DNA from: Thermodesulfobacteriota bacterium
Lineage (GTDB): Bacteria; Desulfobacterota; Binatia; UBA9968
Assembly: GCA_036794995.1 (NCBI GenBank)
Contig: DAIRFP010000001.1
Span: 25,549-89,548, forward strand
Length of the DNA stretch: 64,000 bases
Direction of reading: 5' to 3'
The position numbers and the translations under genes were made by a program. This document shows positions 27,135-52,806 of the stretch, piece by piece. Positions within the stretch are counted from its first letter, which is position 1; the number at the start of each line of letters is the position of its first letter. The notes below the pieces were generated by a model, which worked only from the letters and a program-made list of their open reading frames with translations, had not been told where the DNA came from and ran no database searches.

Positions 27135-27211
27135 TGGTGGCGGTGGGCGGATTCGAACCGCCGACGCCGCGGATATGAGCCGCGTGCTCTGACCAACTGA
27201 GCTACACCGCC
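27135..27211 (-). tRNA. tRNA-Met (anticodon CAU), elongator-type, CCA encoded
   Basis: Minus strand reads GGCGGTGTAGCTCAGTTGGTCAGAGCACGCGGCTCATATCCGCGGCGTCGGCGGTTCGAATCCGCCCACCGCCACCA. Cloverleaf folds cleanly, anticodon loop is CUCAUAU, and 1-72 is a G-C pair, so it is not an initiator. A lysidine-modified Ile2 identity cannot be excluded. Confidence 0.9.
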
Positions 27212-42251: not shown

Positions 42252-43253
42252 CTATATTGAGAATTTGAGATTTCCGACCGCCATCCGGTCACGCCAACCA
42301 ACCCAAAGATTCGTGCTCAGATATTTGTCGCCGAAATCAGGAAATACCGTGACTAACGTGCCGGTGCGGAGTTTGCGCGCGACTTTCAAGGTGGCAAACA
42401 TGGCTGCTCCGGATGACTGACCCACTAGAACTCCTTCTTCCTGACTCAAGCGATAAACCATTGCATAGGCGTCTTCAGTGGCAACAGGGATCTTTTCGTC
42501 CAACTCTTCTTCGTGGTATATCCCAGGCACGATGGAACTAGCCATGTGCTTGAGACCTTCCAGGCCATGAAGCGAGTCGTCAGGTTCCACGGCGAGAATC
42601 TTGATATTTGGATTTACCTCCTTGAAATATCGGCCCGTGCCCATAACCGTTCCGCCTGTGCCAATCCCCGCAATGAAGTGCGTAATCTGTTGCTGCGTTT
42701 GCCGATAGATTTCCGGACCTGTGGTTTCATAATGAGCCTGGGGATTCATCGGATTGAAATATTGATCTGGCTTGAAATAACGCTCAGGGTTTTCTTCGAG
42801 AATTTTTCTACATAGGCGAATGGCGCCATCCGAGCCTTCTAATGGGTCGCTAAAAACGATCTTTGCCCCGTAGGCAGTTATGATCTGTTTGCGTTCCCTG
42901 CTCACGTTTTCCGGAACGACTAACTCCACCGAATAACCGAGGACGCAACCGATCATGGCAAGGGCGATTCCGGTGTTTCCCGAGCTGGAATCCAAGATCG
43001 TTTTATCCGGTCGTAGCTTTCCTGAGCGAATTCCTTCCTGCACCATTCTCAGTGCGGCGCGATCCTTAACCGATCCGCCCGGATTAAAACCTTCCAATTT
43101 TGCATAGACCCGCACGCTTGCAGGGAGGCCTTCGGTGAGCTTGCGAATTTCGAGTAAGGGGGTATCGCCGATCAAATCCAGCACTGACTCGACTTTCCTG
43201 GGCTCCTTTGACGGGACCGGAACGAGGCGAAGAAGTGGAGTCGTTTGTGCCAT
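42252..43253 (-). CDS. cysM: CysM/CysK-family PLP-dependent sulfhydrylase (CysO-thiocarboxylate-dependent cysteine synthase-like)
   Basis: 333 aa with PLP-lysine motif GGSVKDR and SSGNTG. The start ATG overlaps the stop of the upstream CysO-like gene by 1 nt (TGATG). Confidence 0.85.
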   Translation of the reverse strand: MAQTTPLLRLVPVPSKEPRKVESVLDLIGDTPLLEIRKLTEGLPASVRVYAKLEGFNPGGSVKDRAALRMVQEGIRSGKLRPDKTILDSSSGNTGIALAMIGCVLGYSVELVVPENVSRERKQIITAYGAKIVFSDPLEGSDGAIRLCRKILEENPERYFKPDQYFNPMNPQAHYETTGPEIYRQTQQQITHFIAGIGTGGTVMGTGRYFKEVNPNIKILAVEPDDSLHGLEGLKHMASSIVPGIYHEEELDEKIPVATEDAYAMVYRLSQEEGVLVGQSSGAAMFATLKVARKLRTGTLVTVFPDFGDKYLSTNLWVGWRDRMAVGNLKFSI

Positions 43254-43558
43254 CAGCGCCTCTGCCTCTGTGCGGGCGTTTGCAGTCCCCCGGCGATCGC
43301 CGGGACAATCGCGATGTTATCACCCTCTTTTAACGCTGTTTCCAGGTTTTGTAGAAAACGGATATCGTCACCGTTGACGTAAACGTTTACAAAGCGGCGG
43401 ATCTTGCCGGTTTCATCGCAGATTCGTTCTTTAATACCAGGGAAATTCTTCTCCAGGTCTTCGACCATCGTCTTAACATTGATGCCTTGCGCGCTGACCT
43501 CGTCGGCACCTTGAGTGAACTTTCTAAGCGGAGTGGGTACGCGAACTCGTACTGGCAT
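43253..43558 (-). CDS. cysO: MoaD/ThiS-family sulfur-carrier protein, CysO-like, with a 10-aa extension after the Gly-Gly
   Basis: 101 aa with ...RRFVNVYVNGDDIRF...GDNIAIVPAIAGG followed by LQTPAQRQRR and the stop. Pattern strongly resembles mycobacterial CysO (from memory). AAGGAGG SD upstream. Confidence 0.8.
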   Translation of the reverse strand: MPVRVRVPTPLRKFTQGADEVSAQGINVKTMVEDLEKNFPGIKERICDETGKIRRFVNVYVNGDDIRFLQNLETALKEGDNIAIVPAIAGGLQTPAQRQRR

Positions 43559-43760
43559 AGGGAGCCTCCTTCGAATCTATCGAGAAATCACTTGATGAAT
43601 TGCGCATCCATGTCGTTCTAATAAGATAAACTCTCGTCTTGTTCCTTGCAAACCTCCACCCTCCAAGACGCGATCCGTCTAACTAGCCGCCGCGCGTGCT
43701 GTCGCTGTTGGACTAAGCTGCTGGCAAAGTTTATCGAAGTTTTCGAGAGTCGCACGGATG

Positions 43761-44013
43761 CTAAAAGGGCTTTTCGAGGGGTGTAAAGCCGGAATACAGA
43801 CCAACCTGTGGTTCCCCATCGATGGCAAGCAGTTCTCCATAGCACCATAGGTTTTTGCCGCGGGAGGTGATTTTTTCCCGACTGATGTATGACTTGTTGC
43901 TATCGTAGTCACAGATTATTTCCGAGGGTCCAAGCAGGTTTCACATACGTGAGTGGCTGCTTCGGAGCGTCCTGCCCGCACTCTCTGCATTGAAGTCCTA
44001 GGACAAAACTCAT
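43761..44013 (-). pseudogene. Threonine-synthase-like (ThrC/MetM-like) N-terminal remnant, frameshifted and truncated
   Basis: ATG at 44013 has a GAAAGGAG SD. Three frames in succession read MSFVLGLQCRECGQDAPKQPLTYV / VCETC / LGPSEIICDYDSNKSYISREKITSRGKNLWCYGELLAIDGEPQVGLYSGFTPLEKPF*. This is the zinc-ribbon plus LWRY..LLP...GxTPL pattern of long-type ThrC N-termini. Only about 480 nt separate the flanking genes. Confidence 0.65.
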
Positions 44014-44041: not shown

Positions 44042-44833
44042 CTAGGTGCTGGTGGCAGGCGATTTTGTCGCGGATTCGACACCGCAGGCCAGGCAATGGG
44101 CGTCTCTGCTGACATTCACGACGTAAAACTTCATCCATCTCGCGTCGAACGTGAGCAATCGATCCGTCAGCAACCCTTCTTCGAAGCCGGCGAGATACTT
44201 AATTGCTTCGATTGCCTGGATCGAACCCACGGTCCCTGCGACGGCGCCGAGTATACCGGCTTGCTGGCAACTCAAGATTTCTTCGAGCGGAGGTGGTTGC
44301 CCGAAGAAACATCGATAGCAGGCGCTTTTTCCAGGTACGACTGTCATGGTCTGCCCTTGCAGCCGAACGATTCCAGCATGCGAAAAGGCAATGCCCAGAG
44401 CCACAGCAATGTCGTTGACTAGAAATTTTGTCGCGAAGTTGTCGCTGCCGTCAACAATGAAATCGTAACCTGAAAGGATTGCGGCTGCGTTGTCCGGTTC
44501 GACCCGAGCGGCATAGGTTACGACTTCCACGTCGGGGTTCAGGAGGCTAATTTTTTCTTTGGCGGAGTCCACCTTGCGCCGGTCCCGGTCAGACGTCGTG
44601 TGCAAGATTTGTCTCTGCAAATTGGATAACTCCACGTGATCGGGATCGACCAAGCCGAGGGTGCCGACACCAGCGGCGGCTAGATAGAGCGCTGCCGGAG
44701 AGCCGAGTCCACCGGCTCCGACGACCAAAACGCGAGCTTGCCGAAGCCGGACCTGTGCTTTCCCACCCAGATCGGGAATCATGATCTGCCTGCTGTATCG
44801 CTCAATTTGGTCTGTGGTAAGGCGAATGCTCAT
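44042..44833 (-). CDS. ThiF/MoeB/HesA-family E1-like adenylyltransferase (no rhodanese domain)
   Basis: 263 aa with RYSRQI, the nucleotide motif VVGAGGLGSPAALYLAAAGVG, and two CxxC pairs (CYRC, CLAC). Confidence 0.9.
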   Translation of the reverse strand: MSIRLTTDQIERYSRQIMIPDLGGKAQVRLRQARVLVVGAGGLGSPAALYLAAAGVGTLGLVDPDHVELSNLQRQILHTTSDRDRRKVDSAKEKISLLNPDVEVVTYAARVEPDNAAAILSGYDFIVDGSDNFATKFLVNDIAVALGIAFSHAGIVRLQGQTMTVVPGKSACYRCFFGQPPPLEEILSCQQAGILGAVAGTVGSIQAIEAIKYLAGFEEGLLTDRLLTFDARWMKFYVVNVSRDAHCLACGVESATKSPATST

Positions 44834-44847
44834 TTTGCTATTCCGGC

Positions 44848-44884
44848 AAAAAAAGCCTCTTCCCCTAGGATAAGAAGAGGCTTT
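44848..44884 (-). terminator. Intrinsic terminator (expression platform of the S-box-like leader)
   Basis: Minus strand reads AAAGCCUCUUC-UUAUCCUAGGG-GAAGAGGCUUU followed by more U (U7 run in total). It ends 14 nt before the thiF/moeB ATG. Confidence 0.75.
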
Positions 44885-44890
44885 ACCTCA

Positions 44891-44991
44891 CCTTATCTTT
44901 TGCCCCGGTAAGAGGCGGGTTGGAATTAGCACCAGCGTTTCGTCTTCCGGAACCGGTTGCTGTGACTTCGCTGGGGCCGCTCTGGATAAGG
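44891..44991 (-). promoter_or_regulatory. SAM-I clan (S-box)-like riboswitch aptamer
   Basis: Minus strand reads CCUUAUCCAGAGCGGCCCCAGCGAAGUCACAGCAACCGG...CGCUGGUGCUAAUUCCAACCCGCCUCUUACCGGGGCAAAAGAUAAGG. Hallmarks are CUUAUC/GAUAAG (P1), AGAG, GCAACC/GGUGC (P3) and AAUUCC. The P2 region is atypically short. Confidence 0.6.
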
Positions 44992-45014
44992 TGTCCAGAT
45001 GTTGCTAGACGCTT

Positions 45015-45043
45015 AAGCTATCGTAGCAGCCAAGGTGTGTCAA
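45015..45043 (-). promoter_or_regulatory. Candidate sigma70-type promoter for the S-box-like leader
   Basis: Minus strand TTGACA (45038-45043), 17 nt, TAGCTT (45015-45020). About 25 nt upstream of the P1 5' strand. Confidence 0.4.
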
Positions 45044-45170
45044 GCCCTTCAAATGCTTCTCTTTGGAACAAAAAAATGTTTAATTTCAAAGGGTTTAGGC
45101 TGGTGACGACTCGAAACTGCGGCGGGCAAAATTGACCCTGCTGAGCAATTCTGTTACACCGGAACTTGGA

Positions 45171-45578
45171 ATGAAGGTACGTGAAGTCTATTCGAGTTAT
45201 TTACTCATTGCCGGGGTTGTCTGCTTTTTGCTGGGCATCGGTAACTGGGCAATCGGTGCGGTGGAAACCTCGAAATACCAGAAGCTGCTGCATAGAACTG
45301 AACAAACCGGGCTGGAAGAATCCTACAGAAGCTTCCAGGAGCTTGATCACCAAAAAAACGAAGAGGTCCTTCGGCGAATTAACGAGGATCGCGAGAAATA
45401 CAACACTGCCCGGGTGAAGCTAAATTTCTTTTCTGTGGTGTTGGTAGGTGGAAGGTCGTTGTTTCTTTGCGGGGTTCTATTGATGTTATGCTCCCTGATT
45501 CGACTTATACGTCGTGATACGCAGAAGAAAATGACTACTCTGAGTGACCTAGCTAGGGGCGACAATAGGGGGCGTTGA
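45171..45578 (+). CDS. Hypothetical membrane protein (two TM helices flanking a charged coiled segment)
   Basis: 135 aa from the ATG at 45171. TM helices LLIAGVVCFLLGIGNWAIGAV and FFSVVLVGGRSLFLCGVLLMLCSLI. No family recognised. Confidence 0.4.
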   Translation: MKVREVYSSYLLIAGVVCFLLGIGNWAIGAVETSKYQKLLHRTEQTGLEESYRSFQELDHQKNEEVLRRINEDREKYNTARVKLNFFSVVLVGGRSLFLCGVLLMLCSLIRLIRRDTQKKMTTLSDLARGDNRGR

Positions 45579-52719: not shown

Positions 52720-52806
52720 TGGTGCGAAAGAGGGGAGTCGAACCCCTACGGGTATTACCCCACAGGATCCTGAATCCTGCGCGTCTACCAATTCCGCCAC
52801 TTTCGC
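52720..52806 (-). tRNA. tRNA-Leu (anticodon CAG), CCA encoded
   Basis: Minus strand reads GCGAAAGTGGCGGAATTGGTAGACGCGCAGGATTCAGGATCCTGTGGGGTAATACCCGTAGGGGTTCGACTCCCCTCTTTCGCACCA. Long variable arm; anticodon loop UUCAGGA. Confidence 0.9.

Follow-up and report, generated by a model that had tools for sequence, protein, structure and literature searches.

A SAM-I riboswitch with an 11-nt P2 deletion, probably decaying, in the leader of a thiF operon of uncultured Binatia

We analysed an RNA leader on the minus strand of a 64,000-nucleotide (nt) stretch of DNA from a Thermodesulfobacteriota bacterium (class Binatia, UBA9968; GenBank assembly GCA_036794995.1, contig DAIRFP010000001.1, positions 25,549 to 89,548). 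This whole stretch is called the window, and all positions are counted from its first letter. The leader stands ahead of an operon that begins with a thiF/moeB-type gene. An earlier note on this DNA had described it as a riboswitch of the S-adenosylmethionine (SAM)-binding SAM-I, or S-box, clan with an unusually short second paired region (P2), and had suggested a structural variant like SAM-IV or SAM-I/IV. With a probability of about 0.75, comparison with orthologous leaders suggests instead that the element is a canonical SAM-I transcription-termination riboswitch in decay and that the operon is mostly read through. Rather than defining a new structural class, the odd P2 most likely reflects a deletion in a regulator that is decaying.

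Results

The leader and its P2 deletion

The degenerate SAM-I aptamer lies at 44890-44992 on the minus strand. It retains P1, P3 and P4 and the joining segments J1/2, J3/4 and J4/1, while its P2 is truncated. In a sensitive scan of 341 nt, the Rfam SAM-I model RF00162 matched 44992-44890 over model positions 1-108 with 41.7 bits and an E-value of 2.3e-8. This score falls short of the RF00162 gathering score of 44.4 bits, and a scan of the whole window at the gathering threshold did not call the leader, returning two tRNAs only. Since the gathering threshold misses the leader, a short stretch was scored in E-value mode. The match greatly exceeds what chance would produce. The assignment to the S-box clan, for which a covariance-model check with RF00162 had been proposed, is borne out by this match and by canonical homologues at the same locus in relatives.

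The P2 remnant, GCGGC-CCCAGCGAA-GUCAC, spans 44962-44980 on the minus strand. It is 19 nt long compared with 30 nt in orthologous leaders, which appears as an 11-nt alignment gap with the deletion site between 44976 and 44975. In other Binatia, whose ThiF proteins are 68-91% identical, the orthologous P2 reads GUGGU-GGA-GGGAGCGGCCC-UUCGAA-GCCAC. In the alignment of 18 aptamers (A2), columns 18-28 (GGAGGGAGCGG) are missing in the window lineage alone. These columns cover the 5' strands of the kink-turn (K-turn) and of P2b, together with most of the loop L2. In the RF00162 alignment, the 14-nt distal P2 block of the model is likewise reduced to 5 nt in the window. The K-turn, a 3-nt bulge with tandem G.A pairs, is therefore absent: the deletion has taken its 5' strand GGA and, from P2b, the 5' strand GGG(A), which leaves in the distal P2 just the 3' strand GAA and the CCC of P2b. 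The L2-J3/4 pseudoknot is absent as well, as the L2 bases are deleted and J3/4 (AAUUCCAA) is kept without its partner. A complement of the remnant loop CCCAGCGAA was looked for in J3/4, and none was found. The description of P2 as atypically short and lacking the K-turn and pseudoknot signature was thus correct.

The short P2 is common to ten metagenome contigs from different samples, assembled independently by JGI and ENA and 98.8-99.9% identical to the window. Because ten independent contigs carry it, the short P2 is no assembly artefact. It is a real, fixed allele of an uncultured Candidatus Binatia population. Since 18 other Binatia, L091 included, have a canonical full-length P2, we read the short P2 as a recent, lineage-specific deletion of 11 nt in a canonical SAM-I riboswitch, belonging to one species-level lineage.

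The rest of the aptamer was read from the sequence, and every string quoted in the earlier note was found at its minus-strand position. P1, which closes the four-way junction, is formed by ACCUUAUC (44992-44985) and GAUAAGGU (44897-44890). Its 8 bp are standard pairs across 18 leaders, and the following CAGAG is present, with J1/2 as CAGA at 44984-44981. P3 (AGCA-A-CC ... GGUGCU, 44928-44961, minus strand) holds the SAM-contacting bulge region. Its conserved strands GCAACC and GGUGC, with a bulged A, are the same as in the relatives; none of the core pairs varies across 18 leaders, and the distal pairs show covariation. J3/4 lies at 44927-44920. The P4 hairpin (44903-44919, minus strand) is drawn as CCCG/CGGG or GCCUC/GGGGC by the RF00162 alignment and RNAalifold, and it covaries among relatives according to RNAalifold.

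The expression platform is also in place. The P1 3' strand with its flank, GAUAAGGUGAGG (44886-44897, minus strand), is identical in most relatives and serves as the 5' strand of an antiterminator. Of its 12 positions, 11 can pair with CCUCUUCUUAUC (44880-44869), one G-U included. The segment 44880-44869 doubles as the 5' arm of an intrinsic terminator (44848-44884, minus strand), formed by AAAGCCUCUUC (44884-44874) and GAAGAGGCUUU (44862-44852) and followed by a run of seven U. This run stops at 44848, 14 nt ahead of the thiF ATG at 44833. Folding gives a terminator stem of 11-13 bp plus the U7 run, and both terminator and antiterminator are kept in the relatives. The P1/antiterminator/terminator switch therefore stands as it had been proposed.

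Orthologous leaders and lesions in the clade

At the orthologous thiF loci of Binatia, 18 of 20 leaders score 56-92 bits with RF00162 at the gathering threshold; three of the relatives (L108, L103 and L105) were scored in a later E-value scan and also fall within this range. L091, the closest intact relative, reaches 79.3 bits compared with 41.7 bits for the window. RNAalifold recovered the standard P1/P2a/P2b/P3/P4 structure from the 18 aptamers, with covariation in distal P3 and P4. The homologous leaders thus conserve the P1, P3 and P4 pairings, for which a covariation analysis had been suggested.

Against this consensus, the window has 6 broken pairs, compared with 0-2 in each of the other 17 leaders. 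It carries private changes at three otherwise invariant columns, and its P2a and P4 are weakened without compensation. U>C at column 14 turns a U-A pair of P2a into a C.A mismatch, and C>U at column 39 turns a G-C pair of P2a into G.U. At the base of P4, columns 91 and 118 form a C-G pair in 17 leaders, and G>C leaves a C.C mismatch there in the window. Within P3, a private and polymorphic G>A at 44940 gives a C.A mismatch in the window, while L001, a strain that shares the deletion, retains the G. When changes were polarised with outgroups, the window lineage had about seven substitutions and the deletion inside the riboswitch, and the sister L091 had none.

In the ThiF tree, the window groups with L091, L103, L105 and L093, and four of these five lineages carry different riboswitch lesions. 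The L103 leader (288-413; 66.1 bits) has an insertion in the K-turn (GGGG; 4 nt in the Rfam alignment, 5 nt with MAFFT) together with other changes. The L105 leader (1329-1443; 67.1 bits) has two P1 mismatches, a weakened terminator and a U-tract interrupted by C. In L093 (1200-1500), an 84-87% relative by ThiF, the first ~35 nt of the aptamer survive (CCTTATCCAACGTGGTGGAGGGAGC), the 3' two-thirds are lost and replaced by unrelated sequence, and no RF00162 match was found in the leader; its thrC-like gene is intact. The sister clade (L094, L108, L011 and L012) is intact at 82-90 bits. Since damage has arisen independently and repeatedly in the window's clade, the comparison points to relaxed selection on the riboswitch there.

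A further leader of canonical length, L022 (2798-2913), has CGUG in place of AGAG in J1/2 and GGUGGUA in place of GGAGGGA in the K-turn and still reaches 72.8 bits; this, too, may be an impaired copy.

Predicted folding

The P2 remnant contains CCAGCG (44969-44974, minus strand), which is perfectly complementary to CGCUGG (44937-44932) on the 3' side of P3. With ViennaRNA, the window aptamer folds into an alternative structure of -31.8 kcal/mol, compared with -27.9 kcal/mol when the canonical P3 is enforced. Because the P2 remnant competes for the P3 3' strand, the predicted probability of the canonical P3 pairs is only ~0.01 in the window. It is ~50% in L001, and in L091 five of the six pairs reach 0.90-0.99 with the sixth at ~50%.

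Constrained folds were compared at the decision point, when the terminator 3' arm is not yet made. In the window, the antiterminator fold is at -38.9 kcal/mol and the P1 fold at -38.2 kcal/mol, compared with -51.6 and -53.3 kcal/mol, respectively, in L091. Relative to L091, the deletion is predicted to move the balance ~2.4 kcal/mol toward the antiterminator. One position of the terminator stem is G-C in the window lineage and A-U or G.U in the relatives, through a derived U>C on the 3' arm.

Next to the thiF start, CCGGAAU (44839-44845, minus strand) can pair over 7 bp with GUUCCGG (44947-44953) in the distal P3. This complementarity is absent in L091, so it is probably a coincidence.

Operon genes

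The first gene of the operon encodes a ThiF/MoeB/MoeZ-type adenylyltransferase (44042-44833, minus strand; Pfam ThiF, E 2e-78; NCBIfam MoeB/MoeZ/SAMP-E1). It is followed on the same strand by genes for a ThiS/MoaD-like sulfur carrier resembling CysO and MetO (43253-43558; Pfam ThiS, E 3e-17; NCBIfam SAMP1/MoaD_arch) and a CysM-type cysteine synthase (42252-43253; Pfam PALP, E 3e-70; TIGR01136 cysKM, 352 bits, over the cut-off). Between thiF and thiS, the window has a gap of 483 nt without a called gene. All the relatives examined hold an intact 390-420-aa ThrC-like enzyme dependent on pyridoxal phosphate (PLP) at this place. A tblastn search with the intact 420-aa gene of L094 located its pseudogene remnant in the window at 43709-44013 on the minus strand, where residues 1-82, spread over three frames, are fused directly to residues 390-411. 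By blastn against L091, the loss is a clean internal deletion of 924 bp. By this comparison, the ancestral operon is thiF, thrC-like, thiS-like and cysM.

The intact ThrC-like protein is labelled threonine synthase by NCBIfam, and its gene is adjacent to the ThiS-like and ThiF/MoeZ genes in relatives. A route from O-phosphohomoserine to homocysteine uses a ThrC-like MetM, a ThiS-like MetO and MoeZ, according to Hasebe et al. (2024) as cited in bioRxiv 10.1101/2024.10.14.618325. The same preprint remarks that MetM is often misannotated as threonine synthase/ThrC. Based on this remark and the gene context, the ThrC-like gene is probably of the MetM type. The earlier note had called S-box control of a ThiF-CysO-CysM operon unusual; with a MetM-like gene in the ancestral operon, control by SAM becomes logical and the apparent oddity is explained.

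The remaining genes thiF, thiS and cysM stay open in the window, and between strains they differ by 9 synonymous and 3 non-synonymous changes. The mostly synonymous changes suggest that these genes are still expressed, which fits read-through better than silencing.

In L012 (2992-5082, plus strand), thiF and the thrC-like gene form a single reading frame of 696 aa, which may encode a fusion protein or result from a lost stop codon. The ThiS-like carrier of the window ends in AIAGG followed by a 10-residue tail, LQTPAQRQRR; the tail in L012 has 4 residues. Given this tail, a JAMM/Mec-type protease would have to trim the C-terminus of the carrier before it could be activated.

Upstream of the leader, a sigma-70-like promoter was identified at 45015-45043 on the minus strand, with TTGACA (45043-45038), a 17-nt spacer and TAGCTT (45020-45015). 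Transcription would start near 45008. The promoter string CTTGACAC is invariant among nine aligned leaders. A consensus scan for promoters and terminators called neither this promoter, whose -10 hexamer has three of six matches, nor the real terminator, owing to a loop-size limit. Farther upstream lies a gene for a homoserine kinase of the ThrB_alt type (46642-45602). Between this gene and the leader, on the opposite strand, an open reading frame of 135-148 aa (45132-45578 in the window, plus strand) is present in every related contig examined and has no Pfam match. The two tRNA genes mentioned above, at 27138-27211 and 52723-52806 on the minus strand (68.9 and 58.1 bits), are the sole Rfam matches at the gathering threshold in the 64-kb window.

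Search for a variant class

A pattern for short-P2 leaders was defined as a SAM-I core with a P2 segment of 8-24 nt, which the window matches. This pattern had no match in 185,579 species reference genomes. In a metagenome collection, where the scan did not return the window's own population, 8 matches were found, and 3 of these are genuine and unrelated to the window (L098, L101 and L102; 40-49 bits). The others were rejected: L096, L099 and L100 are canonical riboswitches with GCAACC inside P2, L097 has a scaffold gap (NN) and L095 lacks the P1 3' strand. The groundwater metagenome leader L098 (1983-2091, plus strand; 40.3 bits) has a plain 6-bp P2 hairpin, CCCCGC/GCGGGG with a CAAAU loop, lacks a K-turn and keeps P1, P3 and P4 intact. 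For a variant that truly lacks a K-turn, it could offer a better candidate than the window RNA. L101 (478-562, minus strand; 48.6 bits) lacks the 3' half of P2, and L102 (88-190, minus strand; 41.3 bits) has a compressed P2.

Membership in SAM-I/IV or SAM-IV was not supported for the window RNA, since the internal P4 is present, a conserved second pseudoknot (PK-2) is absent and SAM-I is the best clan member by cmscan, which reports the best clan member only. A PK-2-like pairing between the P3 loop (L3) and the 3' tail was looked for in six leaders; the best helix differs in place and partner in each, and none is conserved. With canonical orthologues, no conserved PK-2 and a short-P2 SAM-I architecture that is essentially absent elsewhere, the suggestion of a structural variant like SAM-IV or SAM-I/IV did not hold.

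Discussion

The ancestral leader, as the relatives and the established S-box mechanism suggest, would have bound SAM and thereby stabilised P1. A stable P1 would have held GAUAAGGUGAGG away from the antiterminator, so that the terminator formed and the operon was turned off. The ancestral operon would have produced homocysteine and cysteine via a protein thiocarboxylate. In the window lineage, the 11-nt deletion took away the 5' strands of the K-turn and of P2b along with the bases of L2 that form the pseudoknot, and pair-breaking substitutions then built up in the P2 remnant. As a predicted consequence, the collapsed SAM-bound fold would be out of reach, or reached with much lower affinity. 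P1 would be open to strand invasion, the antiterminator would form and the operon would be read through more or less constitutively. Most likely, the leader is SAM-blind or strongly desensitised.

Work on canonical riboswitches agrees with such a loss. When the SAM-I K-turn was changed to a plain bulge, SAM binding was undetectable by isothermal titration calorimetry (Schroeder et al. 2011, PMC3651934). Mutations of the L2-J3/4 pseudoknot raised the dissociation constant about tenfold, prevented collapse of the aptamer and lowered termination in vitro and in vivo (Hennelly and Sanbonmatsu 2011, PMC3064774). Control by SAM made sense because of the thrC-like gene, and that gene too has become a pseudogene in the window. 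Loss of this gene was rejected as the sole cause of riboswitch decay, as L103, L105 and L093 keep the gene and carry lesions nonetheless.

Several observations weigh against decay. The ligand-binding core (P1, J1/2, the P3 bulge, J3/4 and J4/1) and the antiterminator and terminator are almost unchanged relative to L091, although synonymous divergence (dS) of thiF has reached 0.40, and a derived change in the terminator strengthens a pair. The thrC-like remnant is ~20% diverged from L091, compared with ~12% for thiF, so the pseudogene looks old, and the riboswitch outside P2 is far less changed than this remnant. Such a difference would arise if the P2 deletion were much younger or if selection still acted on what remains of the RNA. 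Also, SAM-I/IV binds SAM with an unkinked P2 and without the first pseudoknot, PK-1 (PMC6890682), meaning that a K-turn is in principle not indispensable for the ligand pocket. Constraint after the deletion was judged from L001 alone (1.25% diverged), as the 90% cluster of the window ThiF has 5 members, mostly fragments. In favour of decay, the leader differs by 2.2% between the window and L001, which amounts to 5 differences only. This is close to the thiF synonymous sites (5 changes in ~195 sites, with no non-synonymous change) and to the pseudogene remnant (2.9%), so leader polymorphism is at about the neutral level.

The preserved core and platform, the strengthened terminator pair and the SAM-I/IV precedent for the same pocket working with a plain P2 would also suit a functional minimal SAM-I variant, in which a four-way junction with a stub P2, lacking the K-turn and the L2-J3/4 pseudoknot, binds SAM and switches. 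Binding would probably be weaker and the operon re-tuned to a higher SAM threshold. Fixation of the allele in at least 10 contigs from many samples is in keeping with this explanation. We nevertheless consider it unlikely. SAM-I/IV compensates by PK-2, and a conserved L3-3' tail pairing was not found here; in a real SAM-I riboswitch, removal of the K-turn ended binding (PMC3651934). Substitutions within the stub disrupt pairs and give the P3 3' strand a rival partner. In sister lineages the riboswitch is being lost through other lesions, no second case of the architecture was found in the 185,579 genomes and the leader polymorphism is near neutral.

A broken aptamer could also leave the operon off. 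If the 8-9-bp P1 still formed and the strengthened terminator halted most transcripts, the leader would act as a constitutive attenuator, and the operon would be largely silenced and heading for loss. P1 has a pair probability of at least 0.99 in the equilibrium ensemble, the terminator has gained a G-C pair, one operon gene is already a pseudogene and the P1 plus terminator state of the full leader is 6.6 kcal/mol more stable than the antiterminator state. This energy gap is non-discriminating, however, as it is similar in the intact L091 (6.0 kcal/mol), and the decision-point balance is shifted ~2.4 kcal/mol toward the antiterminator compared with L091. Furthermore, thiF, thiS and cysM are intact with the 9 synonymous and 3 non-synonymous differences (5 and 0 in thiF), indicating purifying selection and hence expression. 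Silencing is therefore improbable. That the short P2 is a sequencing or assembly error or a chance resemblance is hardly credible: the match is under the Rfam gathering score, but the same deletion recurs in 10 contigs of independent JGI and ENA assemblies, the E-value is 2.3e-8 and canonical riboswitches at the orthologous position are unmistakably homologous to the leader.

If decay is the right reading, the leader is a clear natural example of a riboswitch dying, with four different lesions in one small uncultured Binatia clade next to an intact sister clade, and with a regulated gene that has also turned into a pseudogene in the window lineage. Our literature search on degenerate riboswitches returned nothing useful. 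For sub-threshold Rfam matches with a "variant" architecture, this case argues for comparing orthologous leaders before a new class is proposed. The window RNA is also a ready natural P2-deletion mutant for gauging the contribution of the K-turn and pseudoknot to SAM-I function. In the intact relatives among the Binatia, a SAM-I riboswitch precedes a probable MetM/MetO-type thiocarboxylate pathway, which supports a role of the cluster in methionine biosynthesis. If the aptamer instead proved to be a working minimal one, SAM would be sensed without the K-turn, the L2-J3/4 pseudoknot or PK-2, and the peripheral tertiary scaffold of the clan would be dispensable in vivo.

The gene set is that of two known thiocarboxylate routes, CysO-CysM of M. 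tuberculosis and MetO/MoeZ/MetM of Streptomyces: an activator of the ThiF/MoeZ type, a ThiS-like carrier whose GG motif is followed by a C-terminal tail, a ThrC-like PLP enzyme and CysM, with a homoserine kinase gene just upstream. As its ThrC-like gene is a pseudogene, the window could retain the CysM branch only.

Among riboswitches, the window RNA is like SAM-I (RF00162) in its four-way junction with P1, P3 and P4, in the strings UUAUC-AGAG, GCAACC/GGUGC, AAUUCC and AGAUAAG, in having a terminator and an antiterminator that overlaps the P1 3' strand and in its place upstream of sulfur amino-acid genes. It differs by the shortening of P2 from 30 to 19 nt and by the absence of the K-turn (the GGA 5' strand of the GGA/GAA sheared pairs is lost), of P2b and of the L2 bases. 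By score, K-turn and pseudoknot it falls outside strict RF00162 membership; by descent it is a SAM-I riboswitch. SAM-I/IV (RF01725) and SAM-IV (RF00634) belong to the same clan and share the ligand-pocket nucleotides of the window RNA, and P2 of SAM-I/IV is not split by a K-turn. Unlike the window RNA, these two classes have no internal P4, and PK-2, between the P3 loop and the 3' tail, replaces the lost periphery; SAM-I/IV relies on this second pseudoknot (PMC6890682). The window RNA also has counterparts in the engineered K-turn and pseudoknot mutants of SAM-I (PMC3651934, PMC3064774), with which it shares the loss of the kink that lets L2 reach J3/4. Those laboratory mutants alter 1-3 nt, whereas the window RNA has lost the whole 5' half of the distal P2 and its remnant has drifted further.

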